Below, in pieces: positions 2,960 to 52,500 of a stretch of 64,000 nt of DNA (positions within the stretch are counted from its first letter, which is position 1; each line of letters opens with the position of its first letter). The position numbers and the translations under genes are program-made. The DNA comes from Psammoneis japonica (lineage: Eukaryota). Under the pieces are notes generated by a model that was not told the origin of the DNA, ran no database searches, and was given only the letters and a program-made list of their open reading frames with translations. Location of the stretch: the NCBI GenBank assembly GCA_008632985.1, contig QPGO01000219.1, positions 1-64,000 on the forward strand. Reading direction: 5' to 3'.

Positions 2960-5900
2960 TCAGATGCCAGGCTTCATTTTTCGGCGTGTTTCCTGGTAAG
3001 TTAACGTTTCGCAGTTGCTTCTCAGAACACGTTGGTCCGCAGTGGCACTAGAAGATAGGTCATCCTTTGCAAACTTAGAGCAATGTGATTGATTCAATTC
3101 TTCGCTGCAGGCTTTCATGTACACCTCGCGAAACTTGCCCCTGTTCATTTTCGGCAACCCAGAAGCACCAATGGCGACTGCAATTAACTTTCCCATGTCA
3201 GTACTTGTACCAATCGTTGTTTTGTCTTTTGACAGCAGATATTGTGCAATAATGCCAGTTGGACTGGACTGAACGAGACGTCGGGTGTGTCTATATATCG
3301 TCCAGGCATCAGCGTTGGGGTCGTTGTCCGCTTCACTGTTGCCAAGACCTGTGGAAACAAAGAAAGGCTCTACTTCCGTCCCACCAAGCCATGACGGTAA
3401 GAAGGAAGGCGGGTTTTTCTCGATTGACGTGGGTTCAAGCTTTGAACGGTAATGAGTTATGTTGCCCGCACGAAACGACTTCTCCACACTATCGGAACTC
3501 TCCCATCGAAGAACATGATGAGGAGGAATACCGACAAGCTGCATCGTTTTCATAAGTTTTTCTTCGAACAGATCGAAATCTGCGGACAATTTTATTTCAT
3601 CGAAGCAAGCTGCGCTCTCCGTCCGTTCGTCGTAGCCCAGATGAAAGTATTCGCTTGAGAAGATTTTCCGCAACTCGAAAACTACGTTGAACACCATCGA
3701 CAGAATGGCAGGATAGGTGATGTCCAATGGAATCCCATAATCTGTATCGCACATCACATTGGGACAATTGGCGACTAAACCCGATGAGAACCAGCCTCCT
3801 GCACGAGATACGACGCTTAGTTCGGGCATGACTTTGATACCCTTTGCCGCAGCAACTTTGACGAGCTCCTCGACCTGCGAGACGTTCGTCACGTTCTCCT
3901 TTGACAACGTCAGAAGAGGAGCCCAGGTACGTCGCCTGGGTGTTTGTTCTGTTACATTTCCGTTCCAGGCAATCCTTGGGTGAGACTCCAAAGTCAACGG
4001 AAAGGAAAAGTCATCAAGTAGACGAAGATGAATCAAGTTGTACCCGAGTCGAGACAGAACGTTAACCATTCGCTCGACATTTTTCAGATCGTTGACAACA
4101 GAAATATCCCACGTTACGCCCAAGTGAGGTACCACGCGGTGAAAGAGCAATTTCGTTGTGTTAGTACTGCTGACACGAGGTCCACTGGGGACCTCTCCAA
4201 AGCTCTCCCAAAAGGGTTCGACCGACAACGCGACCTCCTTTTGTGAGTTAACCACTGGCTCCCCCTTTTCATCAATCTTAAGGTCTTTCATGAGTCGCAC
4301 ATCGTAGGGTTCCGTCAGTCGGTCACATGTAGCAGCCTTCCAAGTAATCCAATGGGATTTCCACTTTTCAAGCCACTTGTTGGTGAACATCAACGGTTTT
4401 CCATCTGCCAAACACGTTTCGTCCGACCACCCCAACGATCTGCAAAAGTGAACATACATTTCTGACGACCATTGCAAGCTCTGCCCCTCCTTGGAGGCGC
4501 CCATAGCCACGACCAATAGACGCCCATAAACGTTCCGGTCCTTCCACCAGTTTGTACTCAATTCAAATGTCCCAGCAATAATACCCTTTGGATCCTCGCC
4601 GACGAGCTTCTGTGTGTGAGAAAAGAACTCTGGAGCCGCCCTTTCCCCACAGCTGTCAAAGTAGAGACCCTGTGATACAAAGAATTCCCCGTCTCTTCGC
4701 TTGTTTCTTGGAAACGTTTGCCACCAATGTACCATATCTCCGGCACGGACGTTTATTCCTTGTTGACCAGTTGTTTCCCATCGAACAACCTTATCTTCGG
4801 GCATTCTCAATTCCTTCAAAACTCTCTTGAGCCCCGCTTCGAAATCGTTGTACTTAGGCATCACCTGACCTATCTCTTGATAACACGCGCTACTCATGTG
4901 GACTTCATCGCCTCCCAAATGAATATACGGACTTGTGTGGAATATCTCAGAGACTTCTTTAATGACGTCCTTCAGCACACCCAAGAGCTTCGGGCTTGTT
5001 TCGTTGAGAGGCACACCATAGCCCTTTTCGCAGGCGAATCTAGGACACGGTACGACTAGCCCTTCTACTCCACTCCACGATCCGCAGTGACCTGGAGCGT
5101 TGATCTCGGGCATAATGGTGATGTTCTTTTCAGCGGCATACTCGACGAGGTCTCTCAGTTCATCTGTAGTCCACACAGGATTTTCCTTCTGTGGGTCTTC
5201 TGCTGTTGCCGGAGCAGGCAACGCCAGCTCTGGGTGTGATTTTAACCTGACGTTGAAGGCTTGGTCATCGGTAAGTCGCAAGTGTATGAAATTAAAGCGC
5301 AACATGTGCAGGTCGTCCACAAGTTTCTTAAGCCACGTAAGAGGAAAGTAGTGTCGGCCACCATCGACCAAGACACCCAAATACGGGACGGCAGGGTGAA
5401 ATGGCACCATTGTGGCAACTGACGGAGTCTTCAACACAGCAATGGGTTGCTCAACCATTGTCTTTTTCTTTGTCTTAACCTTGATAATCGTTGTAGCGTT
5501 GGTAGTGTTGATGCAATAGTAGCGTTAGTAGTGTTTGATGCAACAGTGAGGTTGGTTGCATTCGTCTCTTCATCGCATTCGTCGCTACTTCTCGCTCCTC
5601 TTCAACCTCCACCTCCTTTTCCACTGTCTCTACAAGCCCAAGTGCTTTCTTCCACTTGTCTGCAGCGGATTCGACAGGGGAAGGGTCTCATCCGTGTCAG
5701 CATCATTGTCGAGAACGAAATCCTTGTAGTCATCATCGTCTTCCTCTTCGTATGGTTGCTCTTCAGACCCCACAGACTGAATTACCACATTCCAAACGAC
5801 AAGGATAGTATTCTTGCTGAGTTTGAAACGTTTCTCCGTTTTCCTATCATCGACAGTTTGGCTATAAGGCATTGTAATAGTCGGCGATCTCCGGGACATG

Positions 5901-9954: not shown

Positions 9955-11715
9955 TAAGCAAGAAAATGAGGGACAGCAAAAGGAGGTGCTGAAGCTGCAG
10001 TCAAATCAGAGGAATAGAAGGAGCGCATGATGCAGGGCACAGGGCGTTTGGTGGATGGAATGGAGGAGGAGTCCTTGCAAAGGGTAGAAAGGAACTGAAG
10101 GGCATGAGCAGAGAGATGACATGTGAGATGTTGAAGCTCAATTTTTGGGTGAGCCACTGAGAGGGAGAAGAGGGCTGGTGCCTGCTGCTGAAGCAGTTGC
10201 TGGCAAGTTGGATCCAGGTGAAATCAGCAGAAGGAACAAGGGAGGTGGGAGAAGCAAGGGTGTGAAGGAAGGCAGAGCAGGAGGCATCAGAGCTGTGGAG
10301 GGCAGAGAAAGAGGGCCAAGGAGGCTTGGGCTGACAGTGGGCAGCAAGCAAGAAGACAAAAAGAAAGTGGTGAAAGAAGAAGCCAAGACCACCCAAGTGA
10401 GCAATGGCAAAAGGAAGAAGGAAGATCCCATCATTGTTGAGAGAGCCAAAGAAAAGGAGGGTCCAAGGAACTTTGATCTTGTGCTTGGCTCAAGCAGAAG
10501 TGTGCCTCAGTTGATGGCACAGGAGCAGTGAGGGTCCAGGCAGACCAGGAGGAGGGCCAAAGAAGGAGCTTTGGGCACAGTGACATCAATGGCAACACAG
10601 TGGTGATGAGAAGGGAGTGGAAAGAAAAGCAGGAGAGAAGGGGTGGAAATGCCAACATCATCTGGGCAAAGAAGGGGACAGGAGACCAAGAGTTTGCAGG
10701 CTTGATGAGATGGACATCAACAGGCAAGCAGCGTGCAACTTGGCAAGAGGCTCAAGGTTTGAGACATGACAAAGACAGCATCACAAAGGCCATTGGAGAG
10801 CTTGGGATTGTGGCTGTGTTGGCAAGAGAAGGCATGATCTCTGCAGGCATCCAGAATGGCATGGCCACAGGGGCAGAAGAAGGAAGGGCAGGAAGGCAGA
10901 GCTTGTGCTGACTGGGCAGTGGTGACACAGGTGCATGAGAGGATGCAAAGGCAGGTGGAAGCAGCAGAGCTGTGAGAGAGGGGGCAAAAGGGGAGGCTTG
11001 CAAGGGGGGAGAGGAGTGAGGAGGGGGGGAACTTGGACATCAGAGGGAGCATCAGCTGGGACAGAAGCAGCTGTGATGAGGAGCACAACAGAGATGGTGG
11101 GCCAGACAAGGAGTGGTTGTCACTGACTTGAAAGAGCAGATGGGCAAGTGGCAGAGGACACAAAGCCAAGGTCCAGGGACCAGGCAAAGTGGAGACAGAT
11201 GCTGCAAAGGCAAAGACAAGAGTGGGGTTTGTTCCAAGATGAAAGAGCTTCAGGTGCTGGGGAAGAAGAGCTGTGGAATTGCCAGGTTGAAGCTGAGTTC
11301 AGTGAGTGGCAAAGCAAGAAAAGGAGCAGAGAAGTGCCACAAGGACAAAGGGGATGACAGCGGCAGAAAAGAGCCACAAAGAGTGACCAAAGCCACCAAG
11401 GGAGGCTGGGAAAAAAGCAGCAGCAAGGCAGTGATGAAAGGCGGTGCAATGAAGAAAGCAACAGACAACAGTGAGGGCAGCACATCTCTTGAAAGAACAA
11501 GGGGGGTCGTGCAGGAGGTTTGTCAACATTGAAATTGTGGCAAAAGTTGGCACCAAAGAGGTGGGTGGAAGAAGGGATGGAGAAGTGTTCAAAGAGCCAG
11601 GCTCGACCTGGTTTTCATGAAGGCTGGTGAGGAGTTTCTTGACTTTGGAGGAGAGAACCCAGGCTGGCCAAGGAAGCAAACACCGGAAGCAAGCTCAGGT
11701 TGTGGGATGGGGTTG
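9955..11715 (-). mobile_element. Decayed 3' part of an RLE-type (CRE/R2-like) non-LTR retrotransposon
   Basis: Minus-strand peptides CPCGHAILDACRDHAFSC (Zn knuckle), LLCPDDVGI...VAIDVTV (RPAD...D-V-T-V endonuclease) and IFLLPFAIAHLGGLG. Sharp CpG/TpA-depleted island. Confidence 0.7.
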
Positions 11716-12230
11716 AATGTCGCAAGGTAGCCGACAAACTCGATTGACTTGACACGATCGTCTTTCGATCAAACACAGACATTGCGGACAAGCCTTTTGC
11801 TGATCTCTCTCGGGATATGTGACCGAAATGACTTATAGATTCGGCAATAATTATGAAGTAATCGTGAAAGATGACCACACGTGATTCTTTCGTTCAAAAG
11901 TGTACTCGGATGAAATATTTAGGGACAGTCACGAGTGGCATAAAAAGACTTAGCCAATCGATTTCAATTCTGACTCATCACATTTTTCTATGACTTTGAC
12001 ATATTCTTGTATCCGGAGATACCCGTGTTTACGTTAGTTCTACGTCAAGTGAACCGAAGGCATTTTGATCGTCGATACCGATTTATGTCGTCGATGACCA
12101 ACGATGACTTTTCCTTTGTCTCTCTCTTTTTTTCCCCCAATCTCACACAAAACGACGCAGTGTTGTTCATTTTGCGTTCTCGCGAATACAGGTAGCAAGC
12201 TTCTCCTCCTCAACTTCTTTCACTCAAGCC

Positions 12231-12704
12231 ATGAATGTGCATCGCGGATACACGGATAAGGAAGCATCCAAGTTGCCTTTGTCCTGTAGAGAAGAAGAAG
12301 AAGAAGAAGAAAGCCGTTCCAGTTCTATTGACGAGCCGAAGCACAACAAAGACATTCTGGCAATGACGCCAAAGCGATCCAGAGACGTATCGTTTCGCGA
12401 TGCTGCTTCTGTAGTCATACCTACCGGTGCCATGCCTTGCGTTGAAGAACCTTCGCCAAAAAAGCGAAGGTTTCAGAGGCGCAATTCCAAGGTACCTTCC
12501 ATGTTTTTCCCCTCCGTTTCACGACGAGACTCCGTACTGCTTGATTCTTCACCACGCGAGAGTCGCAACGACGCAGTCGTGGAGAAACAAGACAGCAAGT
12601 CATCCTTCCCTACTCAACAGGAATGGAGTCGATTTCTGCACACTTGTGATCCTAGCATAGAAGACCTGTTGAAATATTTGAACAGAGTAGACGGCCTGGC
12701 GTGA
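12231..12704 (+). CDS. Hypothetical small protein with KKRRFQRRNSKVPSM motif
   Basis: Single ATG-TGA ORF of 157 aa with normal composition. The basic RRNS motif is of a kind I recognise from diatom hypotheticals. Confidence 0.6.
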   Translation: MNVHRGYTDKEASKLPLSCREEEEEEESRSSSIDEPKHNKDILAMTPKRSRDVSFRDAASVVIPTGAMPCVEEPSPKKRRFQRRNSKVPSMFFPSVSRRDSVLLDSSPRESRNDAVVEKQDSKSSFPTQQEWSRFLHTCDPSIEDLLKYLNRVDGLA

Positions 12705-13101
12705 TCAAACGCGGATTGATGACCACGGTACCGGTGCCGTATACCCCATACCCCTCTCTGGTGTTGGAGTTGGAGATATCTTTTGGAGCACGTATTAGAC
12801 TATGCTCCGCTTCGCACGCCCAGCACTCGAGAATATTTCGAAAGCTACAAACCTGATTGAATCTGAGAATCGTACCATCAAAACACGTCAAGTTTTGTGG
12901 CAATCTCACACCGAAACTTCTCGAGATACTAAGAGCAGAACATGACGACTAAAACCCCGTTATCACCTTTTATGCAGTACATGATTAGTTCTTCTTACAG
13001 GCGTATCACAGGTACTCATAGCAATCAATAAATCTGCCAGAAGTGCCAATTATAATCCGAGTGATGCTTGTCTGGCACGCTCCCCGTATGTAAAACATGA
13101 A

Positions 13102-15999
13102 TCATTTGTAAGTAGTCCTTGCATCGCAATTCCCCGTTGGTGCATCAGACATTGAGCCCCGTAATCCCTGCTTCTCTTTGTCGTACAGAATATGTTCAAA
13201 GCCTCGCTTCTGCAAATAAGGACGTAACGACTTGGTGTTGACGGGATTCCTACGTGGCGAGAGGTAAACAGCGACTGTTAGGCAACCAACATGAAAAAGT
13301 AAAGATTGTTGTAGCGCCTAGAAAATTTGCTTACCACCAGCAGTGCGTACACTGTATAATCACATCCAAGTTGTCAGGATTCTTGTGCATATCATGTTTC
13401 TGACGATTGTTTCGAATTGTCGTACGTATCTGCTCTTTCTGATCCGCTGTTATCGTGTGCTCGCTCGCATACATGTGAGTAATCTTTGTCCTGGCCAGGC
13501 CGTTTGCAAATGCCGTCCACGTCCTGGGTTTGACATTGTATGTTTCCCCAATATTCAGACACCAAATACTACAGGAAGGGCGTTGCAGGACCTTCAGCAA
13601 ACGCAGAACCTGCTTATCACGCATTCCAATATTAAAGTTCTGAAAAATGAAAACAAGGACAGTTCGCATGAGGAAGAGTGGAGTCAAACGCCATGAAAGG
13701 GACACCACAACGGACATACCTGAATGTACAATGATTGACAATTGGTGTTCTCCTCGAGAGCGTCGAGCGCAGCATCAATGACAACCGTGGGAGTAGCTGG
13801 ATCACTAAGGTACTTCTTCATCTTCAACACAACCATGTCGCTGTCGTTGTTCTTAAGCTTTTCTAGCAAGCTCAGCGTCTTGGGTCCAGTCAAGATGGAC
13901 TGTGATGGCTGACGAACAGATCTCCGAACCCAGTTCCCCGCAGGTGTCACAGCATCGTCATCCGCAAGAATCGCCTTTAGCTCCGCGGCGGTGGGAGGTT
14001 TGGCTTCTGCCTTTACTCTCCTTGCTTCCTCTGCTTCAATTCTTGCTTTTTCCAACTCTTCCGGAGTCGGTGCCAAGATCGGCTGAGTCTTTTTCCGAAA
14101 GCCCGACTTTTTCCCCGATTTTGGTGGTCTTCCCCGCTTTTTCTTCTCAGCGGCTCCCTTGTCTGATTCGCTCTTCTTGGGTCTACCCCGCGGTCGTTTC
14201 TTTTTCTTTCGCTTGAATCTAGGCGGCACCCTCTTTTCAGTAGCGGTACCCCAGGCCGTCTCGCCCCAATCGCTATCCGACCAATACTCAACTTCACTAC
14301 TCATGGCAGAACTGGTATCACCATCCGAAGAAGCCAATACAATTTCGGACGAATTGGGATTGTCGTACTTTGCAAGACCCGGTGGAGTGCAGCCAAACAT
14401 CTTTTGTGCCCAACGCAGAATCTCCTCCTCGTCCTCTGACGACGAGGTGTCATCATCAGAACTGTCCGTGTCCACGACTTGTACTGGTGTCTCTTGCGGT
14501 TGCTTGTTTTCAATGACCTGATCGGTTCCTTTCTTCGTTGGTTCTTGCTTTTTATCCATTGGAACCACTTTTACTTCTTGTTCCCGCCGCTTGACCGGCT
14601 CGGTCGTTTGCAACTGCATCGCCGTGTCCTCTTCGGCATGATTCACCGAGTGCGGTGATTCACTGACAATACCCGCCGGCATGTCGTGGGATGTGGCAGT
14701 TCTAGGAGTTGTAGAGATGATGCGAGCTTCCAATGCTACTGCGTGATGATCAGATCCGTGATGGTATTCTTCCGACGAGGCTTCCATTAAATCCGGCGTA
14801 GCCTCGACATCAAGCGCATCAACGATCGTTCTCTTCTTTGCATCCGAGTCTGAATTGCGTAGCGATGGTTCTGGCTTCTTTTCCATACTCTCGACAGGCT
14901 TAACGATTTCCAGCTTTTCCGTGTGCGCCTTGGTTACTGACTTGACTTGTTTAGTGATACCGGTATGCCTAGGGTTCGCCACGCTCTCGACGACCGGCTT
15001 GAGATCTTCCTTCTCTTTGATGGTCACTGGTTTAACTACTCCCACACTCCCCATCGCCGCCTCTTCTTTTGTGACTTTTGCAGTCTTCGCTTCATGCTTG
15101 TCGGCGCTCTGATTCATATCGATGGTTCCTTTCTCGTTTCTGTCCTTCGACGGAACCGGTTCATCCGACTTGTCATGCTTTCCCCCAGCAGACAACGACT
15201 TGCTTTCTACATGTCGTACTTTCCCCAGTTCCCCCTTGTTCCCATCGGAAATTCCCTCTTTCTTCTTTGGAACTTCATTTCGCTGTTGTTGTTGTTGACT
15301 CGGTACCCACCGTTTCTTGAGCGGAGAGGAGCTTCTACCCAGACGAGTAGGCTTGTGCATAGAATTTTTCTTTTCTGCCTGCTGCGCTGGTGGCCTAAAG
15401 AGTGGATGTCCCGACTTTTGTCCAGGTGATCTAGAATACCCATTCAAACGTCTCCTATCCACGGAAGTGGAAGAAGACCGCGAGGGCGACTGTCTGCTGT
15501 GTTGTCGTGAATAAGAATCATAGGGAGATCTGCTGTGGTGGCTGTTGTGACTGGAACGTGAATGATGACTGGAAGACGACGAACGAGAACGAGACCGCTG
15601 TCTGTCGTATTGACCATATGAATGTGACCTTGATGATGATGGCGAGTAGTGGTGCTGTGATGATGATGCATACCGTATTCTCTCCGTGGTTGCTGCTTCT
15701 CTCCGCGGAACGGTATGTTTGTGTTGAGGTTCGTTTCGCACAACGTGTTGACTACTCTCTCCGTCACGCCTGCTGTACGGTTGCTGTTCTACTTGTCTCC
15801 GACGTTGTTGCTGATGATGATTCTCATGCTTCCATCTAGCACGCGGAGGTCCATCGTTGTGGTGGCGGTGATGCGGCAAGTCGCTTTCATACAGAGGTCG
15901 CTTCTTTCCGCGTCGACCAAAGGCATCGACCTCTTCACTAGCAAACGATGGAACCGACGAATCACCATCTTGCTTTACAAACGATCGAAATGCCGCCAT
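13102..15999 (-). CDS. Large low-complexity nuclear protein with RS-rich N-terminus, two AT-hook-like motifs and a C-terminal RNI/LRR-like domain; exons 13720-15999, 13335-13639, 13102-13249
   Basis: 771-aa ORF with KRPRGRPKK and KKRGRPPK. In-frame GT-AG introns give ...CQSLYIQNFN...IWCLNIGETY...CTHCWWNPVNTKSLRPYL. Confidence 0.85.
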
Positions 16000-18900
16000 A
16001 CTGACATTTACAAGCCTTGACTACTCGATACAACAATAAGGATGATTCAACCCTTCCAATGTCAAGAAAAACACCGCAACCTGCTGTTCGTGACTCAGAA
16101 TCAGAATCTAGCTTTTCTCCCGATCAATAGACGCGTTTCGAAATCCGCTAAGGACTCCTTTGCTTCTAAGCAGTGTGTCACGGTCTCTTTGTTGCGCTAC
16201 TCAAGACAAGGACAACAAACACAGTGCAGAGCGGAGCGGCGTTGAACAGCACTTGCCCGTCTTGGTTGATTTTATGTCTGCTGGTGCAAAGCCGCGTTGA
16301 GTTTTCAGTTTGGTAATCATCCCCTGTAGATTCTACGTGAAGTTCGGGTTTCTGTCATGGCGCACGTGCAAGCTACGTAGAAAGTAGTACTCGCTATTTC
16401 AGTGGTCGTACGGCAGGCGTTAAATTCGAAATATTTTTATTCAGCTTTTAGTACAACATAAAACGTGACGGTCTGTCTGGCTCCACGTTCCAGCACAGAC
16501 CTACATACGGTACACAGACAGACCCACCATACCACACGGCCGCCATTACAAAAAAAATTAAAAATGCGATGTGCGAGCCTGCAGTGTGATTGTAGGACCC
16601 TCTCTCTAGCTAGACTCCTTTCAATGTGAAATACCGGCAGGTAACCAAGCCGGATGCAACACCTTTGGACTGCACCAAAACTTACCCAACTTGCAAAAGC
16701 TTCACAAAGACAGAGACTTGCTGGTTTTCTTTGCCAATGCGGGGGGTCTTGGAAAGCCCACAACGAAGGAAACACATGAAGCAGACACAACTCTTTACGC
16801 ATGGCACATGGACGTTCGAGATTCATACAGACTTGTATCGTGAAGCTGTCGAAACAGGAATTTGAAATTTTTGGAAGACTCCTCTCAAACGCCTTGGCTC
16901 ATTCAGGAAAATCGGTGAAGAATTTCCGAGTTTCGAAACAGTGGGAATTGGTTCTTTGATCCATTAGAGAAAGCATCAGTGCCGCACCGTCTTTCATGAG
17001 TCCAAATTCAATGGAAAAAGGCAACACAGATCTCAGTGCCCACTATGACCTTTCAAACGATCTGACAGCGGGCTCCAAGGGATTGCAACACTAAGGATGC
17101 AGAACACCGTAAGGAGTCGAAATCCCGGAGGAGGACTTGCGCAGTATCTTTCTGCGAGCAAGCCAGAACTCTCATCACCGGTAAACTCGACGGGTACAGT
17201 ATCGATTCCAAGCGTCTTCGCCGTCCTCGCTGTCTTAAAAAAAAGGTCTCTTCAAAGGGTAGTAGCACCAACAAACCTTGGCCCTCTTTTCCAGCTCGAC
17301 CTGTGCGTCCGAAGCGGTGAATGTAGTTTCCTTGATGTCGGGTGCTCCATACAGTACACCCGTTTTAATTCAGTACGAGACGATTCTTCAAACTGGGATG
17401 CTCGACCTGCTCAGGAGCGATAATGACGCGCAGGCAAGTTGCGCGTCGCTTTTCCGTTCTGGTGGGTACTTCAACTCTTTTTGTTGTTACGCAACACGGC
17501 CGGCAGTCATCATCCAATCCATCCATCAAATAATCAAACTCGAGAGGTATCATCTTGTCTACGAAACTTGCCCCACACTGCACTCCACACTGAACTGTGC
17601 TCGAAAGCGTTTCGTTGTTTGGGATGCTCAATAAGCCCTTGTACAGGTAGGGCCTACCGGTACATTGTATGGTGAAGTTCCCGTTGCTCAAGTACTCTTT
17701 TGTATGCTTTCAAAACTGGCGGTATGGTCAAGTCGATTCGACCATACGTACATTGAAGAATTTCCGACTTTCGAAGTAACGAGAATAATTGGTGCTGTGA
17801 TCGACGATGCTTTGGTTGATGGTTGATGAGGATGTCAACAGCGACAAACACAACATCATCATCTTGGGTGATGATGCATGGATCGATGGATTCTGGGCGA
17901 ACATTCGGTCGGCCACGCGCGCACCGCGCGCACAGTTTGCTCGAAATTCGTGACTACGAAAAACCTACGTTGATTTTACTACCACGAGATTCTCGCCAGA
18001 GCGAGAAATCCGTTGGGCCGTCGCGACTTGGCTCACAATTTCCAAATTCAGCCGTTTTGTTGCTGGTCGATTGTTTTTCTTTGTTGGCTTCCAAGCGGTG
18101 AGTGTTGGTCTTGTGCAGTTCCGTTCTGATTGTTGTTACGTTCGATTTCCTTGTCACACGTCTTGTGTGTCACTTCTGTTTGCAGCAACGTTGAGAGACG
18201 CTCTGGCAGGTGTCAAACGACAAATCAAAGCTCGGATTTACCGGCAGTGTCGAGTTTGAAATCGACTTGAAAAACCGTTGTCCTTTCCGTCTGGCGAGAG
18301 GTAAGAATTTCTTTGCATCGCTGTTGCATTTGTCCGTTCTCCTCTTTGTGGAAGTCTCCCTGTCTCTGTCTCTCTCTGACAAACATGCTTCATTTTCGTC
18401 TTTCCCGCAAGTGAAGCTTGAAGGTTGTCTCGCAGGCCATTTGAATCAAGTGTGGCGATGTTCACGGCACCATCGTCATCGGATGAGGACTCACCATGGG
18501 AGGATTCACCATCAACAAATGCCCTCTGTGAAGAGCGCACTCGGGACTCGCACAATGGAAAGTCCAAACGGAGGAAGGGCAAATGAGACAATGACCAGAG
18601 TTGGGACAAAAGGCGGAAGCTGTCTGTTGAAGCAAAGCCATCAAATGAAAAGATGCTGTCTCCCTGGTGCTGTTTTGCCAACAACATTCCTTTGCCCGAC
18701 TCGATGTCATCCCACACTCAAGACCGTCAAAGCCATGCTGCTGCCACAAATGGGACAAGCGAATCGTGTGCTGTCAAGCGAATGCCATCTTCATGTGCAG
18801 CGTCGGTAAAACGAACGAGTGAGTTTGCCGATGGAAAGCCACAAGTTTTGAATAGAAGCGCTGAAGCTGGCGGCTTCCCAGAAGAATCTTCCGTGAAGAA

Positions 18901-19062
18901 GCGCCAGCGAGGTCCAGGTGAGATCGTGACTCACTTTGTTTGTTTCCTGCATGATGATGATTGTCGTCATGAAACTCATTCTTGTCAATTTCATCTCATT
19001 TGTTGAACACAGGCATGGATGGAGCTTCTGATGCTACAACCAGTGGTGGGGTTGACGCGGAG

Positions 19063-19623
19063 NNNNNNNNNNNNNNNNNNNNNNNNNNNNNNNNNNNNNN
19101 NNNNNNNNNNNNNNNNNNNNNNNNNNNNNNNNNNNNNNNNNNNNNNNNNNNNNNNNNNNNNNNNNNNNNNNNNNNNNNNNNNNNNNNNNNNNNNNNNNNN
19201 NNNNNNNNNNNNNNNNNNNNNNNNNNNNNNNNNNNNNNNNNNNNNNNNNNNNNNNNNNNNNNNNNNNNNNNNNNNNNNNNNNNNNNNNNNNNNNNNNNNN
19301 NNNNNNNNNNNNNNNNNNNNNNNNNNNNNNNNNNNNNNNNNNNNNNNNNNNNNNNNNNNNNNNNNNNNNNNNNNNNNNNNNNNNNNNNNNNNNNNNNNNN
19401 NNNNNNNNNNNNNNNNNNNNNNNNNNNNNNNNNNNNNNNNNNNNNNNNNNNNNNNNNNNNNNNNNNNNNNNNNNNNNNNNNNNNNNNNNNNNNNNNNNNN
19501 NNNNNNNNNNNNNNNNNNNNNNNNNNNNNNNNNNNNNNNNNNNNNNNNNNNNNNNNNNNNNNNNNNNNNNNNNNNNNNNNNNNNNNNNNNNNNNNNNNNN
19601 NNNNNNNNNNNNNNNNNNNNNNN
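19063..19623. other. Assembly gap (N run)
   Basis: Run of N, adjacent to the tandem duplication. Confidence 1.
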
Positions 19624-19730
19624 CCACAAGCAACTGCTGCCCGTGATGCGGACTGTCGAGGATTGCGTCAGAACATGGCTTCTGAGAAAACAAGTGAGCT
19701 TCGCGCTGCTGCTGCTGCTGCTGCTGCAGC

Positions 19731-22650
19731 TGGCACAGCAAAGCCGCCGATTCCCACAGGACAGGAAGCTGTTGCTCCAAACGAGAAGGGGGTCCTTTGC
19801 GATGACACGAATCGTCCGCGTGTCCACTGCGCTCGTTCCGGCAACCCCGTCGCCGCTGCTGTGAGCACTTCTGCCGCAAGCAAGCCTGAGTCTGGAGTGC
19901 AAATAAAAGCCAGAGTCAAGAAGAAGAAACCACATTGTGCACTCAATCCCCTTCCGAGTGTTCCTGAAGAGTGCAATGTAATTGATGGTGCGACTGCCAA
20001 ATCCAGTCGTCATCAGAGTGGTTGTTGCGAGAAAAAGAATGGCACAGCCAATGAAGCCATCGCAGTGGCTGCCAAAGATGCAAAAGGAACCTTGGAAACG
20101 GGCGACTTGAAGGGGAAACCTTTCGTGGGAAACTGAAACCGAGGTCAAGGTAAGACAACGACTCGCATTTCTTTTGGTCCAGTCGATCATGACTGTTCAC
20201 GACCGTGTTGTCATCGCCTTCATGTCAATTGTTGAGTTTAGTCGCAGTCACCGAATCTTCGCGTGACAAGATGGGAACAGCTGGGATTTCTGATGGCGAA
20301 AAGGAAGCGGAGCGATGCAATGTGCACAAGAGTGAGGGCCGTCGGAAGAACGCAGAATGCCCTAAAACGATCAGCGCTGACTCAACACCTGTTCAGCTCG
20401 GCAAGGTCCCTCTTTCGAGTGCTCTCGCGAGCAAAGAGAACACAGGTCCGAACGGGACTGACCAAACCAAGACGTCTGTGAGCAATTGTGAATTCAAAAT
20501 GAGTCGTTCGCAAAGAAACACGGCTCCAGCTCCTCCACTTGTCCCAACCGGTAAAGCTGCAGCTCCCAAGAAATAGAGAACTTTACAATGTGGTGGTGAA
20601 CGGTGCGGTCGTTCCGAGAACGAGAACACTGCCACCAATGAAGATGCATCATTTGTGGCAGCCCAAGCCTCGCCTTCAGTTGAAAATGGAACTCCTGAAA
20701 TGGCCGGTTTGTCGAAAGGACATGCCTTGAACATCACAGGCAGGAAAATGGTTCGGTTTGTTTCGCTGTGCCTCGTTCTTGACGAGGAATTTGTTCTTGC
20801 CACTTCCACATCTCGTTCGTTGCGCATAGACGCCGATGGCGGAGCGTGCATGACAAACTCCGGGCGTGATGTTAACGTGGACGCACCCGCTGTTACGAGT
20901 CAACTTGGGAAGATCCAAGCCAGGACGCCTGACATGAGTTTGAAATCGGGATCAACTGAGCACACGAGGAAACAAACGGCTGCTTCTCCGGACGTGTCCG
21001 TTTCTACCATGGATTTGGAAATGCCAAATTTCAAGCTTAGAGATGGTCATCACAAGACCACAATGAAATTTGATGAACTGGATTCATTCCCCATGCAAGA
21101 GCCTGGCAAGGAAGCAAACGAAGAAGACGTCGATGAAGAAAATGAATCTGATGCCTCGAGTGCCTTTTCTTTAGGATCTCCGCCTGTTGTTGTCACTGGC
21201 ACTGCGGTCAATGCTTCATTTAGTGCTCCCGTCGCTTCGTCTGAAGAATCAAGCCGCAACCGAATCCCAGCTGGTGCAGCAAAGCCACCAATTCCCACAG
21301 GACAGGAAGCTGTTGCTCCAAGCGAGAAGGGGATTCTTTGCAATGGCACGAATCGTCCACGTGTCCACTGCGCTCATTCCGGCAACCCCGTCGCCGCTGC
21401 TGTGAGCACTTCTGCCGCAAGCAAGCCTGAGTCTAGAACGCAAATAAAAGCCAGAGTCAAGAAGAAGAAACCACATTGTGCACTCAATCCCCTTCCAAGC
21501 ATTCCTGAAGAGTGCGATGTAATTGATGGTGCGACTGCCAAATCCAGTCGTTGTCAGAGTGGTTGTTGCGAGAAGAAGAATGGCACAGCCAATGAAGCCA
21601 TCGCAGTGGCTGCCAAAGATGCAAATGGAACCTTGGAAACGGGCGACTTGAAGGGAAAACCTTTCGTGGGAAACCGAAACCGAGGTCAAGGCAAGACAAC
21701 GACTCGCATTTCTTTTTGTCTGGTCGATCATGACTGTTCACGACAGTGTTGTCATCGCCTTCATGTCAATTGTTGAGTTTAGTCGCAGTCACCGAATCTT
21801 TGCGTGACAAGATGGGAACAGTTGCAATTTCTGATGGCGAAAAGGAAGCGGAGCGATGCAATGTGCACAAGAGTGAGGGCCGTCGGAAGAACGCAGAACG
21901 CCCTAAAACGATCAGCACTGACTCAACACCTGTTCAGCTCGGCAAGGTCCCTCTTTCGAGTGCTCTTGCGAGCAAAGAGAACATGGGTCCGAACGGGACT
22001 GACCAAACCAAGACGTCTGTGAGCAACCATGAATTCAAAATGAGTCGTTCGCAAAGAAATGCGGTTCCAGCTCCTCCACTTGTCCCAACCGGTAAAGCTG
22101 CAGCTCCCAAGAAACAGAGAACTTTACAATGTGGTGGTGAACGGTGCGGTCGTTCCGAGAACGAGAACACTGCCACCAATGAAGATGCATCATTTGTGGC
22201 AGCCCAAGCCTCGCCTTCAGTTGAAAATAGAACTCCTGAAATGGCCGGTTTGTCGAAAGGACATACCTTGAACATCACAGGTGAGAAAATGGTTCGGTTT
22301 GTTTCGCTGTGCCTCGTTCTTGACGAGGAATTCATTCTCACCACTTCCACATCTCGTTCGTTTCGTATGGACGCACGCTCTGCCCGTGTTGTTGTCTTGG
22401 ACGCACCCGCTGTTACGAGTCAACTTGGGAAGATCCAAGCCAGGATGCCTGGTGTAAGTTTGAAATCGGGATCAACTGAGCACACGGGGAAACAAAAGGC
22501 CACTTCTCCGGACGCATCCGTTTCCACCATGGATTTGGAAATGCCGAATTTCAAGCGTAGAGATGATTGTCACAAGACCACAATGAGATTTGATGAAATG
22601 GATTCATTCCCCATGCAAGAGCCTGACAAAGAAGCAAACCAAGAAGACGA
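19731..22650 (+). repeat. Tandem duplication with 1541-bp offset (copy A ~19731-21130, copy B ~21272-22650)
   Basis: Near-identical sequence, e.g. AKPPIPTGQEAVAP...KKKKPHCALNPLPS...MDLEMPNFK twice; landmarks 20150/21691 and 20829/22370. Confidence 0.97.
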
Positions 22651-24479
22651 TGAAAATCCCACGCCCAAAGTTACAGAACCTGTTGTTGCTGCATCATCAA
22701 TCCAAATGGGCGACTCTTCCGGCGGATTGGCGCACGCTGCCAATGCAGGAAGTGAAACCGGCGGCTTGCCAAACAAGCCCTCCCCCAGAAAACGCAAACG
22801 AACTGCAGGTGTGACAGTTGCCCATGTTTTGCTTGTTGCTTCTGTTGTCTGCTGTCAACATTGATGCGACCCCCTTCTCATCGGTGTCATCTCACTCGTT
22901 GAACACAGACTCTGAAAATGTGTCTTTTAGCAACGATGGAGAGTGTGAATCTGATGCCTTGGGTGACTTTCCTTTGGGATCTTCGCCTGTTGCTGCCACT
23001 GGCATCCTGTCCAATGACTCATTTAGTGCTCCCACCGCTTTGTCTAAAGAATCAAGCCGCAGCTGAATTTCAGGTGAGAAGATGATTCCCTTTTCATCGC
23101 TGCCTGTGTGATTTCATTGTTGTTGACACTGCCTCTTGCCGGCATCATCTCATTTCATTGAATGCAGACACAGAAAATGGATCTTCTGGCGAGGTTGAGA
23201 GGCAGCTTGATGCTTGCGACTCTGTTGAAGAAGAGGAAGAAGCAGCCAAGGCACCCATGCTTCCCACGACAGCCGGTGTCCGTGAAGCTGGTGGGTGGCG
23301 TGGCCATCCCATTCAAGGAGCGTCGGATGGGCCAGGCCTGGCTTCGAATGCAACCGTTGATGCGACTGAGACCAATGGGTCAATGGATCCAACAAGCAAA
23401 TCCACTTCCACTTGCTCGAATCATTCAGTTTCTACCATGTCATCTCGTTTGCTGAACAGAGACAGAGACCACAATGGATCTTCTGGCGAGGGTGACTTGC
23501 AGCTTGCTCTTTGTGACTCTGATGAAGAAGAGGAAGCAGAAGAAACCAATGAAGGTGCACCCACGCATTTCATTGCCGCCGGTGGCTGCGGAGGTGCCAG
23601 TGACTTGGGTGGCTCTGTCATTGGGGGGGTGCCTGATGCCATGACAGAAGATGCCGAAGCAGCTGTGAGTGAAAGCGACGATTTGGACAGCCTAGATTTA
23701 GGGGCTCCACCTGCTGCTGCGACCGGGAACTCTGAGCAAGCTGTAGAAAAGGCTGCCAAACCTTTGGAAAAAGGACATCGTGTCAAGAGATGGAAAACTG
23801 GCACAGGCGCTAGGTTGATGACTCAAGCCGAGGCTTCAAAAACCGGGTTGAGCTTCGATGAAGGGCTTGCACCGGTGGGTCATTGCATTCCGGACACGCT
23901 TCGTCTTGTCTTCCTTAACATGGTTCACGACAAAAACGTGAGAAGGAGATTAAAGATGTCCAAAGCGGCGATTCGAAAGGAATTGGGCCAATGGGTGGCG
24001 TCCGAGAAATGCATCTCTTTTTGTGCGAGAAAAGGATTTGAGGCGCAACTGTTGTGCCGTGAAGAATCTCGAAGTAAAATGGCGTTGCTTCTGAAAGAAG
24101 AAGGCGCATGTCTTGTCATTGTGGATTGCATGGACAGGGTCAAAAACGTGATGGCCAAGCATGCAGTGGCATGTTTTGCGAAGCATGGTGTCCTCGTAGA
24201 CACTGAGCCTTGCACTCACTTCGTCAGGCTTGAAGAGAAGGATCGAGGGACTCTTAAGCGCCGAAACAAGACGTCCATCAAGAAAGCAAATCGCATCTTT
24301 AAGAAATTATTTGACGGCGAAGAAAACAAAATGTTCGAAATGTGCCAGATTTCAAGGAAAGTGTAAGAAACGGGTGGTCAGGTTCGACAATCAGTTGCAT
24401 AGAGCGCAATGAAACCATTTTGTAAACCACTGCATAAAATTGTAAGGAGAGACTTAAGACAGTGGCATTCTAGACGCGG

Positions 24480-27400
24480 TGACAGCCACCAGCCCATGAG
24501 GGCTTTACGACCAATTCAGAACACATCAGTGGCCAATCCTTTGGCAAACTGGCAGACAAGCTGTGCAGCAGAGCTGACAGGCTGAATCTTGATCTCCAAA
24601 GCCTCAACCCCAGTGCAAAACCAGTGGCATGGAATGCCGATGGGCTTGGTTCATGGGGACAATTTAGGCATGCAAGCAAGCTGGGGGCAAGCAGCATTGT
24701 CTTCATACACAACAGATGCTGGCAGGTTGGCAGCATTGATGGGTGAGGAATCGGTGCTGTCGTTGGCCTGCAGGAAGGCCTCGGAGTGGGCAGTTGCCTT
24801 GTTGTGAGCATCCGGTTGTGCAAAGATGTGCGTGTTAATTTCCTTCAAGATCTTGCAAAGGGGGATGAGATCGCACATTGCTTGGGAGAGTGCGACATGC
24901 TCGGCTTCCATCCCAGAAAGTGCTGCCAGGGTCTGCAGCTTGGACACCCAGACGATGGGACATCTGCCACAACAAACAACACAACTGGTGTGTGACTTGA
25001 AAGAAGTGAGGTTTTGTCCATCTTCAATGCCAAAGAGTCCTGCAAAATCAGCAACAACATGACAATCAAGCCAGCGATCTGCAGTGGGTGCTCGGATGAG
25101 ACCCTTGTCAGCAGTGTCCTTCAAGTGCCAAAGAATGTGCTTGATTTCAACAGCATGGGAGGCCTTGGGAGCAAAGGAGAACTGAGCAACTTGGTGGGTG
25201 GCACAGGCAATGTCCGGGTGGCTGTTGGATGCCAGATGTGTCAACATGCTGACCATGGGCCGACAGTTGCCACAAGGTTCATCGAATGATGGGCCTTCAG
25301 AACCACTGCCAGCAGGTGCAGGAAGTGTGGGAGCAGGAGCTCTGTTGCAGTTTTCTGTCTGGGTGGCATGCAGCACTTTCTCAATTGGGCCAGGTTGGGT
25401 TCGCAGAAATCAGCCATCCTTGAGTTTCTGGATCTTCTTGATGCAAAAAAGTTGCCGACTTTGCCTGCATCATGCAGGTTGAATGCATGGCATTGCTCAT
25501 CATTGGAGACACCCAATTTAGCAATCTCAGCTTCAAGTTCTACAGATGACACTCTGGTGAACAAATCATTGTCAACACATGCCACGCACAACATGCCCTT
25601 CTTGAAACAAATGCAAGGGTTGACAGCAGACTGAATCCATCCTTGTTCAATCAATCCATGGTGCAGCTTTTCACAGAAGCACTTGGGAGACTGGCAGAGT
25701 CCATGCAGGCCTTTCAACAATTTTGGTGCCAAGTCAGCACCTGATTTCTGCTGAAAACCCTCAGGAGGCTCCACATGGACTTTCTCCTTGACATCAGCTT
25801 GGAAAAAGGTGGTGGTGCAGTCAATTTGATGAGTGGCCCAACCTTCTTTGAGCACCATTGTGAGGAGAAGCTAAATTGATGACCATTGCATGATGCGCAG
25901 GTCTTAAAACAATCAACACCTTGCACATCTGCAAATCACCATCAACACAACACTGGGCTTTGTGCTTCAAGGGTGCACCATCAGAAAGTCTTTTAAGCCA
26001 GAAAGCCCATGTGCCAGGCAATGCATTCATGTCGTCAGTCCTTGGCACGATTTCCCATGCACAACCGCGGAGCAGCGCATTCATCTCAATCTTCATGGAC
26101 CCATTTGTTGGCCCTGTGACTGCACACAGCTTCATGCAGGGATGGCACATCAGGGTCCTTGTGTTTCTTTGCAGTTGCACAAACCCTTTGCGCAAACCCT
26201 GGGATCATCAATGTTTCAGGTCTGCAAATCAATGCAGGTGTCCAGAGCAGCAAGATGCACCAACTGAGCTGCAGTCCCAAGCAACTCGTCTTTTGAGTTT
26301 GCTGGAGTAAAGAAGACTTTGTCCATGAACCTTTCAGACAGCAACTGACCCTTGTTTGATCAACTTGAACAGCACAGTGGAGGAGCTAACTCTGGAGAAG
26401 TGGAAGGAGGAGATTCCGGTGTTGTTGGCATTGTTGGAGGAGCAGGTTCAGGCAGAGTGACAGCAGGTGGTGGTTTTAACTCTGGTGGCAGTTCTGCAGG
26501 AGCACAGGCAGAGGACTGGAGGGTCATCAGGTGAATTGGGAACTTCAATGTGGACATCAGGTGTGTCTGGTGGAGGCAGTTTGAAAGCAGTCCATGCCTC
26601 TGAGCGTGAGTGGATTGTCTGGGATCTGCAGGGGCCCGGCAAAGTCATTGATGACAGAAGTGGTTTCAGGGTCACAGAATCACAGAAGTCAAACCCGTGA
26701 TGGTGGATGCTTGGAGGTGAGTTCTCACAGGTGTCATTAAAAGATGGGTTGCTTGCTTCATGCACAAGGTCGTCCAACATGCTGTCTGACAGTCTTTCCA
26801 TGTGACTTGATGTGGCGCAATGAAACACAACTGGATTCTTGATCTCTCATGCAGTGTGCAGGCTGAAAACAACTCAAGAGCTGGCAGTTCCAAGTTAAAG
26901 GAGGACAGAGCATTGGAGAGCTTGTGGAAATTGTCAGTGTCTTTGAGGTCAACCGTCTTGACCAAGATTGGAGCTGGTTTGGCCATGGCAGTTTCCCTCT
27001 TGGCCATTAGAGCAGGAGTGAAAGATGCAGAAGCAATGACCACAGGAGGGCTGCCCACAGCATTGTCAACAGGAGTGCACCACATGCCACAATGGACAAG
27101 TTCTTCATTGGCGTCAGAGTCCTTGTCCAACGGTGGAGCCATTGTTTGCTCAGGAGGACCAAATGGGACACCCGCAGAAGGATCATTTGCAGCAGAGAGA
27201 TTTGCTGAAGCAGCGGCACTGGAGGTGGGTGAAAATTTGCTGGTGTGTTCAGCACTTGAATGGCCTTGGCACATGCCCATCTCACCAGTTTCCTTGTTGA
27301 TGCACTTGTCACACAATTTCCAGAGCATGCCTTTGTCATCAGTGAGGGTGGGTCCCTTGTTCACGAAATGCCAGGTGGGCTTGGAAGGTTTTGGTTTTGG

Positions 27401-51599: not shown

Positions 51600-52500
51600 T
51601 GATGGGAATCTCGTGCATGAAGAGTTCTTTGTCAACAGACCTTCTCTTGGCGAGCTGCTTCCTCTCGACAGAGAGCAACAAAATGTGCAATCCTTCAAAT
51701 TGGTGATTTTCAACATCAGCAGCTTTGTCTTGGCTCTGACTGATGTTGTGTTTGTGATGGGCTTCTTGCTGATCACATCTTCCCTGCAGGATGACTGGAG
51801 CAACGAGAGTTGCTCAACTGGCAAGCTTTCTCAGTCAGAAACGTTGTCCAAGGTTGCCCTCCGAGGTGGAGCAGAGTTCAACAATGCCAAAAGCCATCAG
51901 CAATGAGCTCTGGCATGGCTTCAAGACAATGCGAATCTAACTCGCTGCTCTGAAGCAAAGAAAGTCCAGTGCAGAACCGCACCTGGATTTCAGCGGACAA
52001 GTGGCTGTCGGACGCGGAAGAATGCACCGGTGCATGCAGCACGTTGTCTGCGATCTATCGGCGATCGGATCTATCGGCAGGTCTGTCGTTGCACTCGAGC
52101 TCCCAAACAATCGTCTCGCATGTCCTCTCCACTGGCGAGGTGCATCTGCACAATGACTTTGCTTGTAAATGGCGGAGGCGACGGGCATTGTTTCCTCCAC
52201 TGGTTGACGAACCGGCGTCGCTTGAATGCTGGCTCGAACGACTTCATCTACGAAGGCATCCCGCTCCAGTTTGGCAAGCTAACGTATTTGCTTATTTTGT
52301 CCAGGACATTTCGAACTTGGGCTACTCGTGGAAGAGGAAAGGTATTTCAAGGATTGCGTGTTCTATGTATACATAAGAGCTGAGAATCGGCGGGAACTAC
52401 GTCAACGGTCCATTCCGATGGAGATTGGCAAAATCAAGTCTCTCGAGTACCTGCATGTTGAAAACGCGGGCATTACTGGCTCCTTCTAAGAACATTACGA
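51600..52500 (+). pseudogene. Leucine-rich-repeat receptor-like protein pseudogene
   Basis: Hydrophobic segment, then ALAWLQDNANLT..SEAKKVQ, KWLSDAEEC, GIPLQFGKLTYL and PMEIGKIKSLEYLHVENAGITG, in changing frames with stops. Confidence 0.7.

Follow-up and report, generated by a model that had tools for sequence, protein, structure and literature searches.

What removes TA from a gene and leaves most of its CG in place? The question is raised by an orphan gene with introns on the plus strand (18050–24250) of a 64-kb stretch of DNA from the diatom Psammoneis japonica, hereafter the window, in which the gene lies close to a block of degraded retrotransposons (24511–51940). A reading made from the sequence alone had described an intron-containing, internally duplicated host gene with abundant CG, about four TA by eye in 18301–19060 and a 402-aa ORF devoid of tyrosine. 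The TA count proves to be exactly four (at 18302, 18807, 18853 and 19035), and the quoted CG-rich strings lie at about 19850 and 20600. One intron (18301–18411, plus strand, 111 nt, GT..AG) is backed by a transcript-like contig of run X2, the letters of which pass directly from 18300 to 18412; its single TA lies within the donor GTAAGA. The internal duplication consists of two 1.4-kb tandem units on the plus strand, copy A (19727–21129) and copy B (21268–22649), with 93.6% identity. Copy A has TGA at 20134–20136 and TAG at 20574–20576, the corresponding triplets of copy B being CGA and CAG, and a donor GTAAGA in copy A corresponds to GCAAGA in copy B (21691). Shorter repeats are also present, smaller exon–intron modules recur within the locus, and an assembly gap (N run) occupies 19064–19623. 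The label of host gene for this orphan papain-fold locus is unproven.

Across 18050–24366 (5,756 non-N bases), the ratio of observed to expected counts (o/e) is 0.14 for TA, 0.84 for CG, 1.49 for TG and 1.22 for CA, as compared with 0.57–0.61, 0.98–1.05, 1.13–1.14 and 1.11–1.15, respectively, in three flank zones. Plotting CG and TA separately, a check that the sequence-only reading had proposed, places TA below the flank range and CG mostly inside it. In 500-bp windows, TA o/e is 0.06–0.22 in the gene versus 0.27–0.93 in the flanks (median 0.58, n = 53), all ten gene windows being poorer in TA than the lowest of the 53 flank windows. For CG the ranges are 0.56–1.07 and 0.61–1.35, and nine of the ten gene windows fall within the flank range. 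The TA-poor domain is sharply bordered, its left edge lying at about 17.79 kb and its right edge at 24.25 kb. TA density is normal until 17786, beyond which TA occurs only as a cluster of four (17955–17980); the left border region (17790–18136) is intergenic or promoter sequence, and across 17787–18136 TA o/e is 0.18 and CG remains high at 1.34. At the level of sequence, these counts establish both the signature and its borders. A search for mobile-element borders found no direct or inverted repeats of at least 10 nt common to 17650–18150 and 24100–24650. GC-biased gene conversion was ruled out as a candidate: AA (1.36), AT (0.83) and TT (1.22) are not depleted, and the GC content of the gene is only about 50%, as compared with 47–49%.

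The tandem copies provide a built-in clock. Cross-counting pyrimidine–purine steps over 1,382 aligned bases with 88 mismatches, an alignment that also confirms the duplication, we found TA in both copies at 8 steps, TA facing TG or CA at 10, and TG facing CA, as discordant doublets, at 14. CG is shared at 69 steps and faces TG or CA at 16, and the 34 other mismatches comprise 19 transitions and 15 transversions. By chance, 0.05–0.33 CA/TG doublets would be expected (P about 1e-18). CpG decay, with a CG loss of ~0.10 per copy (from 69 kept and 16 differing), predicts fewer than one, so that the 14 doublets are best explained as steps that were TA in the ancestor and that each copy lost on its own, to CA in one and to TG in the other. 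One such step appears to survive in extant sequence: at 20793, among the differences listed, two contigs of run X1 have TA at a step that is TG in copy A and CA in copy B. Judged from the two copies, the TA loss is mutational and occurred in place, most of it after the internal duplication, and its timing and its independence from CG are demonstrated in the same comparison.

A loss model, worked by hand arithmetic from the step counts with 8 refractory TA sites assumed, yields ~40 susceptible ancestral TA steps of which 85% were lost per copy, and 48 TA per 1,382 bp when the duplication arose, equal to the flank density. The refractory or newly created class is assumed because a simple homogeneous model misfits, 8 shared TA and 10 single differences predicting ~1.5 doublets where 14 are seen. 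From the tandem-copy counts, the rate of change at TA steps is estimated at ~80 times that of ordinary sites and ~17 times that of CG steps, which themselves change ~4.5 times faster than other sites. The claims that TA loss outruns CpG decay and is no by-product of CpG deamination are therefore upheld: the 85% loss of TA per copy stands against the CG steps kept, and the doublets call for a process of their own. The elevated CG rate, together with a CG o/e of 0.67 in 22650–24250, makes some methylation of the gene possible. Rate estimates of this kind would be biased by any gene conversion between copies A and B. On the 3' side, seven of the 14 doublets are followed by T, four by C, three by G or R and none by A, numbers that are too small and that show no clear preference for TAC (as for TadA-like enzymes).

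These observations probably reflect a locus-restricted TpA hypermutation across about 17.8–24.25 kb, as the diatom footprint of a process of the type described in Bigelowiella natans. In mutation-accumulation lines of that alga, Mettrop et al. (2026) report that A-to-G and T-to-C changes made up 230 of the 231 mutations found in two viral insertions, and that all GC-biased mutations fell at TpA, at ~1000 times the genome rate per generation (bioRxiv 10.64898/2026.01.13.699255). The preprint further describes 124 TpA-poor, CpA+TpG-rich clusters whose genes are mostly unannotated; the term 'CpG' has no occurrence in its main text, in which the relation of TpA to CpG is untreated (bioRxiv 10.64898/2026.01.13.699255). 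As far as the preprint's account goes, the two cases are alike in that TpA alone is converted to TpG or CpA, the process is local, with a rate that exceeds that of the surrounding genome by orders of magnitude, and its trace is TpA loss with CpA and TpG gain, and the affected clusters contain TE domains and genes that are for the most part unannotated. In the footprint studied here, likewise, the changes are almost only A:T-to-G:C at TpA, locally restricted and independent of CpG. The cases differ in lineage (a chlorarachniophyte, Rhizaria, versus a diatom, Stramenopila) and in target, the preprint naming giant-virus and virophage insertions, whereas here the targets are a block of Copia relics with an RVT_2 domain and a spliced orphan gene that has four distant relatives and matches no Pfam family. 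The ~1000-fold rate per generation was, according to the preprint, seen de novo, whereas the ~80-fold rate here comes from the footprint alone, within one 64-kb window. Furthermore, here the TE block combines TpA loss with CpG decay, whereas the gene does not.

The proposed hypermutation would convert TpA to TpG or CpA, through A:T to G:C transitions confined to TA, over about 17.8–24.25 kb. It would act in place after the tandem duplication, on exons, introns and non-duplicated parts alike, outpacing ordinary sites roughly 80-fold and the CpG decay of this DNA about 17-fold, and would be distinct in mechanism from CpG decay of the 5-methylcytosine type. Both processes would be saturated in the Copia relic block, whereas the gene would carry essentially the TpA process only. 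We infer that the agent would be an enzyme, the most plausible candidate being an adenine deaminase that is directed to particular loci in DNA, as put forward for B. natans, and that the gene itself would have been singled out because it was silenced, repeated or foreign, not reached by overflow from the TE block.

The TE block has an o/e of 0.12 for CG and 0.06 for TA over 25001–51500, with CA (1.93) and TG (1.83) nearly doubled; 88% of the expected CG is lost, with TG and CA gained. Diatom transposable elements are reported to be methylated (PMC9998398), and the pattern of 5-methylcytosine-driven CpG decay appears in the block and only weakly in the gene (0.84; 0.67 in the 3' part). Such decay of methylated transposons resembles the CG loss of the block with its TG and CA gain; it cannot remove TA, which in the gene stands at 0.14 of expectation as compared with 0.84 for CG. 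A Copia-type reverse transcriptase relic (25244–25870, minus strand; Pfam RVT_2, E 2.5e-13) is the only TE domain found in a Pfam scan of 30 long frames of the block, which holds 31 frames of at least 150 aa; DNA free of TA lacks TAA and TAG, so that such relics carry long spurious ORFs. Internal repeats are almost lacking: self-BLAST of the window returned seven pairs, four of at least 150 bp, and the three outside the gene's tandem are 69–73% identical. A second small block without CG and TA, purine-rich on the plus strand, occupies 10000–11727. TA-free edges of 0.3–0.4 kb with some CG left, 6–7 CG each, are seen at the right end of this second block (11361–11727; 0 TA, 6 CG) and at 51600–51937 (0 TA, CG retained).

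An alternative, which we consider unlikely, is that silent chromatin or a mark spread 6 kb from the TE block into an ordinary host gene, with the TpA process outreaching cytosine methylation. The gene adjoins the block, its CG o/e drops towards it (0.88–0.94 in the 5' parts, 0.67 in 22650–24250), and at the two edges just described TA loss extends 0.3–0.4 kb past the strongest CG loss. That reach beyond a block is far short of 6 kb, however, and depletion is strongest in the part of the gene most distant from it (TA o/e 0.09). Moreover, the 260 bp nearest the block (24251–24510, plus strand), comprising the ORF end and 3' flank between the TA-poor gene domain and the TE block, hold 11 TA, with a TA o/e of 0.56 and a CG o/e of 1.09 (Poisson P 3e-5 at the gene's TA density). 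This TA-normal stretch makes simple spreading from the block unlikely, and the earlier suggestion that the TA process reaches farther from the repeat block finds no support here.

Quite unlikely, in our judgement, is that targeting was triggered by homology, the repeated locus being recognised through its tandem units or paralogues and mutated along the repeat, with a logic like that of repeat-induced point mutation (RIP) and another chemistry. In ascomycete fungi, RIP changes C to T mainly at CpA, creates TpA and does not extend past the duplicated stretch. It shares with the present case a permanent, transition-type inactivation of a locus, sharp borders, dinucleotide specificity and an association with duplicated DNA. 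The 1.4-kb tandem and the smaller exon–intron modules would provide homology within the locus, and X1 contigs contain joints that gain or lose a unit (21311 back to 19808/19809; 21270 to 23107) and loose ends at 18461, 23401, 24210 and 24286 that suggest partial copies elsewhere. On the other hand, parts that are single in the window are depleted as strongly (TA o/e 0.09 in the non-duplicated 5' part and 0.14 in the 3' part, versus 0.15–0.16 in the duplicated part), and no further copy of the gene besides the internal repeats was found within the 64 kb. The preprint describes the main B. natans target as single-copy (bioRxiv 10.64898/2026.01.13.699255). The outcome is also the reverse of that in fungi: where RIP raises TpA by C-to-T change at CpA, TpA is 4-fold down relative to the flanks here and CpA is up, and since TA is destroyed by A-to-G change, not made, the chemistry would be the opposite of RIP.

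It is very improbable that no special process was involved, the low TA of the gene being due instead to selection against UpA in mRNA, to low-complexity amino-acid composition or to a foreign origin with inherently TA-poor DNA. TA is under-represented throughout the window (o/e about 0.6), and the protein is largely low-complexity and acidic, of an orphan family. However, a low-complexity flanking gene (13684–16020) has a TA o/e of 0.50 versus 0.14; a match to ordinary low-complexity genes was a possibility that the sequence-only reading had set against its own view. The introns, one supported and five candidates, are depleted as well (4 TA in 581 bp), which shows that TA loss is no coding effect. 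The duplicate comparison, in which most loss follows duplication with differing outcomes per copy, contradicts such an explanation, and the adjoining TE relics show the same TA loss.

The same explanation fails at the protein level. The six open frames of the locus have no tyrosine in 1,637 codons, as compared with 68 in 3,370 (2.0%) in six flanking ORFs; the frame that includes the 402-aa ORF (23086–24363) has none in 426 codons, as had been noted for the ORF. Cysteine is 3.6% locus-wide versus 1.34%, and histidine is unchanged. The other reservation, that homologues might also be free of tyrosine, is not borne out: the C-terminal papain-fold domain (23764–24363, plus strand) has no tyrosine and 9 cysteines, whereas the last 200 residues of four distant homologues each contain 3–6 tyrosines, and in the motif HA(V/I)AYLA three of the four have tyrosine where the window protein has cysteine. 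Absence of tyrosine is thus not a trait of the family. On the sense strand, TG (531) exceeds CA (441), a bias within the scatter of the flanking genes for dinucleotide counts; selection could lie behind part of it, tyrosine apparently having been replaced by cysteine, not histidine.

An artefact, in which sequencing or assembly misread modified bases at TA and CG, is barely credible: modifications can give systematic consensus errors in some technologies and X1 may be the assembled sample itself, but separately assembled X1 contigs reproduce the TA/CG-free block with 1–2% differences (6/445, 14/623, 3/383, 23/1246 and 21/1129 bases), X2 transcript-like contigs match the TA-poor gene around 18.75–18.87 kb, and the sized N gap would be typical of short-read scaffolds. 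Cover of X2 over the gene is thin and is not read as expression; elsewhere, X2 contigs behave like a transcript assembly in skipping 13249–13333 and 13640–13719, both GT..AG on the minus strand. Over the normal flank at 12001–16417, an X1 contig shows 11 differences, of which 5 are TA versus TG or CA, 2 involve CG and 4 are transversions, which hints that TpA transitions may still be arising, with polarity and recency insecure as X1 contigs are perhaps alleles, another strain or paralogues.

Several adenine deaminases offer comparisons for a locus-restricted TpA hypermutation. ADAR, a metazoan family, hyper-edits double-stranded RNA from A to G, favouring adenines that have U/T on their 5' side, and action on DNA has been reported for ADAT-type enzymes (TadA/ADAT2). 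The present change resembles the activity of ADAR and TadA/ADAT2 in being A-to-G with a preferred 5' U/T neighbour, and differs from that of ADAR in being fixed in genomic DNA; the TA-poor DNA still contains introns, so it is not a retro-copy of edited RNA. We propose tentatively, as a conjecture with somewhat less than even prospects, that diatoms possess a guided, TpA-specific DNA adenine-deaminating genome defence, one that marks selected loci, transposons as well as spliced, cellular-looking genes, is independent of cytosine methylation, outpaces methylation-driven decay and is perhaps still active genome-wide at a low level. Young targets would then be TA-poor with normal CG and old targets poor in both.

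A TA-specific mutation process known so far from one unrelated alga would thus appear to have acted on a diatom gene. In the literature we found no report of TpA hypermutation, or of TpA depletion in transposable elements, in diatoms, the B. natans preprint being the sole report of such hypermutation found. Diatoms are dominant and genetically tractable ocean algae. If the process is genome-wide, TpA hypermutation would extend beyond one chlorarachniophyte to diatoms as well, and if the proposed diatom defence is real, it would be a widespread counterpart, in the SAR lineage, of RIP and APOBEC with opposite chemistry. Relative to the published case, the tandem duplication adds a clock that places the TA process ~17-fold ahead of CpG decay, the target is no obvious virus or transposon, and adjacent regions with one and two footprints make a link to cytosine methylation directly testable. 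Affected proteins, tyrosine-free and cysteine-rich, would mislead annotation and homology search. A TA-specific DNA adenine deaminase, if it exists, would be a natural TA-specific editor of relevance to base editing.

The gene lies in a diatom-like setting: the best named matches of a flanking helicase gene are from raphid pennate diatoms (47–53% identity). Its own affinities are distant. An exhaustive search of 1.84 billion representatives returned only the four distant homologues of the last ORF; a word-based search found none at E 0.001 among proteins of 219–699 residues, Pfam gave no family at E 0.01 for the window protein or its four homologues, a scan of metagenome contigs for homologue DNA gave 103 pattern matches with none confirmed, and the protein Atlas offered archaeal and viral clusters without a usable lead. 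The predicted model of the C-terminal 200 residues (pLDDT 79.4) aligns with the C39 peptidase domain of PCAT1 (Z 10.2, rmsd 3.1, 129 aligned) and with staphopain C (Z 10.1, rmsd 3.7, 144 aligned), at 5–18% identity to solved chains. Foldseek matches are weaker (best E 4.6e-3), and among the 50 structural matches listed, every one with a recognisable title is an enzyme or toxin of papain fold. The five-sequence alignment shows invariant Cys41, His133 and Asp146, in the catalytic Cys, His, Asp/Asn order, and the domain is a predicted clan CA papain-fold. It differs from clan CA peptidases in its lack of a Pfam match and its four relatives only, and shares with them the predicted fold and the Cys-His-Asp residues.

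Observed/expected (o/e) dinucleotide ratios scored in 1-kb windows distinguish three compositional states. Ordinary DNA (1-10, 12-18 and 52-64 kb) has TA at 0.57-0.61 and CG at 0.98-1.05, with TG and CA at 1.11-1.15. The 27-kb block of retrotransposon relics (~24.5-51.9 kb) and a smaller block of 1.7 kb (10.0-11.7 kb) are poor in both CG (0.12-0.14) and TA (0.03-0.06), and their TG and CA ratios are almost doubled (1.6-1.9). The third state is that of the intron-containing orphan gene at 18050-24366 on the plus strand, with TA at 0.14, CG at 0.84, TG at 1.49 and CA at 1.22. In 500-bp windows, TA lies at 0.06-0.22 in 10/10 gene windows, against a minimum of 0.27 among 53 flank windows, and the CG range of the gene (0.56-1.07) overlaps that of the flanks (0.61-1.35). 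Everything that the sequence-only reading had stated about the composition of 18050-24366 was confirmed on checking: its by-eye count of about four TA in 18301-19060 is exactly four, and the last open frame, described as free of tyrosine, has none, which also holds for the five remaining open frames in the locus. Tyrosine codons number 0/1637 in these six frames and 68/3370 in six flanking ORFs. Nor does the TA ratio of the gene match that of ordinary low-complexity genes, as the low-complexity neighbour at 13684-16020 has a TA o/e of 0.50.

The TA loss is neither a coding effect nor a family trait. Only 4 TA occur in the 581 bp that make up one transcript-supported intron (18301-18411, from the letters at a contig joint) and five candidate introns. 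An exhaustive search of 1.84 billion representatives returned, for the C-terminal domain, four relatives (the best at E 1.6e-10 with 30% identity), and 4/4 carry tyrosine, with 3-6 in the last 200 residues compared with 0 in the window protein; the absence of tyrosine is thus not common to homologues. At the motif following the conserved histidine, three of the four have Tyr where the window protein has Cys, and a C-terminal motif reads Trp-Tyr in 2/4 relatives and Met-Cys here. Across the locus there are 0 Tyr for ~33 expected and 59 Cys for ~22 expected, with His unchanged.

The gene contains two tandem 1.4-kb units, copy A (19727-21129) and copy B (21268-22649), which align over 1382 bases with 88 mismatches. 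Classifying every pyrimidine-purine step in both, we found TA in both copies at 8 steps, TA opposite TG or CA in the partner copy at 10, and TG in one and CA in the other (hereafter doublets) at 14; CG is shared at 69 steps and faces TG or CA at 16. The other 34 mismatches comprise 19 transitions and 15 transversions. Since each CA/TG difference requires two adjacent transitions, the doublets far exceed the chance expectation of 0.05-0.33 (P about 1e-18). They would be explained naturally by an ancestral TA (or CG) lost separately, to CA in one copy and to TG in the other. The CG route is insufficient for 14 doublets, because CG loss of ~0.10 per copy (from the 69 and 16 steps) predicts ~1 site lost in both and <1 discordant. 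Direct support for a lost ancestral TA comes from one site, position 20793, where copy A has TG, copy B has CA and two DNA contigs of a sequencing run matching the window (X1) have TA.

A homogeneous model of TA loss predicts only ~1.5 doublets, and for this reason the 8 shared TA were assumed to be refractory. Our own arithmetic on the remaining 10 single and 14 discordant sites yields a retention of ~0.15 per copy and ~40 susceptible ancestral TA steps between the tandem copies. The TA content at duplication comes to 48 per 1382 bp, equal to the flank density, which places essentially all of the depletion after the tandem duplication. Set against an ordinary divergence of 1.2% per copy, TA bases changed ~80x faster and CG bases ~4.5x faster, such that TA change outpaced CG change by ~17x; these ratios are rough and would be skewed by any gene conversion between the copies. 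The core proposal of the sequence-only reading, a TA-directed process distinct from CpG deamination and faster, is supported, and these ratios put a figure on it. As read from the two copies, the TA loss in the locus is mutational, in place and fast.

A simple spread of TA loss from the retrotransposon block into the gene, which the same reading had considered, is unlikely. The two CG/TA-free blocks each end on the right in a stretch of 0.3-0.4 kb (11361-11727 and 51600-51937), a small-scale example of the TA-only state, in which 0 TA and 6-7 CG are left; the TA process therefore reaches a few hundred bases past the strongest CG loss or acts faster there. However, the TA-poor domain of the gene is not continuous with the block. 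On the left, TA density is normal through 17786 and TA is then absent but for four clustered at 17955-17980; it stays sparse to about 24200. The 260 bp at 24251-24510, made up of the final 110 bp of the ORF plus 3' flank, are normal in TA (11 TA, o/e 0.56; P 3e-5 at the gene's TA density) and in CG (1.09), and both CG and TA collapse only past about 24510. Furthermore, the most TA-depleted part of the locus is the part farthest from the block. Near this border stretch, transcript-like contigs lose their match at 24210 or gain it at 24286.

The gene may have been recognised as a repeat. Such recognition, if confined to the internal duplication, does not account for the extent of the loss: TA o/e is 0.09 and 0.14 where the window holds no second copy and 0.15-0.16 in the duplicated parts. 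The nearest analogue in its logic is repeat-induced point mutation (RIP). RIP creates TpA and the locus loses it, so the chemistry does not fit. CpG decay accounts for the CG loss of the retrotransposon block and for no TA loss.

The locus is best explained by a Bigelowiella-type, locus-targeted TpA-to-TpG/CpA hypermutation, which would act here in a diatom-like genome and for which we infer both the enzyme and the targeting rule. In mutation-accumulation lines of B. natans, 231/302 nuclear mutations fell inside two integrated viral regions, where 230/231 were A-to-G or T-to-C, every GC-biased mutation was on TpA, and the rate was ~1000x that of the genome (bioRxiv 10.64898/2026.01.13.699255). 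The same preprint describes 124 genomic clusters that are TpA-poor and CpA+TpG-rich, with mostly unannotated genes, and the enzyme put forward by its authors is an ADAT2-like DNA adenine deaminase; the word CpG is absent from its main text (bioRxiv 10.64898/2026.01.13.699255). The window, which records a footprint only, agrees feature for feature with the signature as set out there. On the other hand, the two cases differ in lineage, in targets (here Copia relics plus an intron-containing orphan gene) and in the relation to CpG. Judged by one helicase gene (57.4-59.8 kb), the genome is diatom-like and not that of Bigelowiella: the best named relatives are raphid pennate diatoms at 47-53% identity (Amphora, Cylindrotheca, Nitzschia, Mayamaea, Epithemia, Seminavis and Pseudo-nitzschia), and the best unnamed match has 59% identity, with none near 100%. 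We found no report of TpA hypermutation in diatoms in the literature.

There is a hint that the TpA process is still active. Over the ordinary flank (12001-16417), the single X1 contig and the window disagree at 11 sites, all of them listed: 5 are TA versus TG or CA, 2 involve CG and 4 are transversions. TA steps make up ~4% of steps, and hence 5/11 is a marked excess, albeit on 11 sites only; the differences are unpolarised, and X1 may represent a different haplotype or strain. The excess suggests that, across the genome and beyond the marked loci, TpA transitions predominate in current variation. As a lead only, the Tyr-to-Cys pattern and the excess of TG (531) over CA (441) on the sense strand suggest that A-to-G changes fell mostly on the non-template strand; TG/CA counts scatter just as widely among flanking genes, and the single-difference TA sites of the tandem copies divide into 6 TG and 4 CA.

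A search for Pfam family matches in all frames of the locus found none. The predicted fold of the C-terminal 200 residues (pLDDT 79.4) superposes on PCAT1 at its C39 domain (Z 10.2 over 129 residues, rmsd 3.1) and on staphopain C (Z 10.1 over 144 residues, rmsd 3.7), consistent with a putative papain-fold cysteine peptidase. Among the structural matches listed, all that are recognisable by title are papain-fold; Foldseek alone gave weak matches (best E 4.6e-3). Cys41, His133 and Asp146 are invariant across the window protein and its four relatives. Copy A carries the stops TGA (20134) and TAG (20574), where copy B has CGA and CAG, and its donor GTAAGA corresponds to GCAAGA in copy B. From these stops and the altered donor, the gene may be decaying, though the last frame of 426 codons is open with the triad kept.

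X1 contigs also join 21311 to 19808/19809 and 21270 to 23107, forms with one 1.5-kb unit more or fewer; alleles, strains or paralogues thus differ in how many units they have. Loose ends in X1 suggest partial copies of the locus elsewhere. In a second run, of transcript-like contigs, one contig (depth 161) matches the gene only at the acidic repeat module 23375-23542. Its unrelated flanks contain TA and CG, so that a normally composed expressed gene elsewhere has this module.

Within the retrotransposon block, a Copia-type reverse transcriptase relic at 25244-25870 on the minus strand (RVT_2, E 2.5e-13) is the sole Pfam TE domain in 30 scanned frames of at least 150 aa. Between 24400 and 52000 there are 31 stop-to-stop frames of at least 150 aa on both strands; such long spurious frames arise because TA-free DNA excludes TAA and TAG, making TA-free relic regions prone to false gene calls. 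The 1.7-kb CG/TA-free block (10000-11727) is strongly purine-rich on the plus strand (A 32%, G 36%). An X1 contig aligned over 610 bases at 16388-16994 has 16 letter differences plus 15 gap positions, far above the 11 differences of the adjoining 4.4 kb; it resembles a haplotype with local divergence in non-coding DNA beside a DEAD-box helicase gene. An 854-residue open frame on the minus strand (2963-5524) apparently consists of two similar halves, with glycoside-hydrolase-like motifs recognised by eye.
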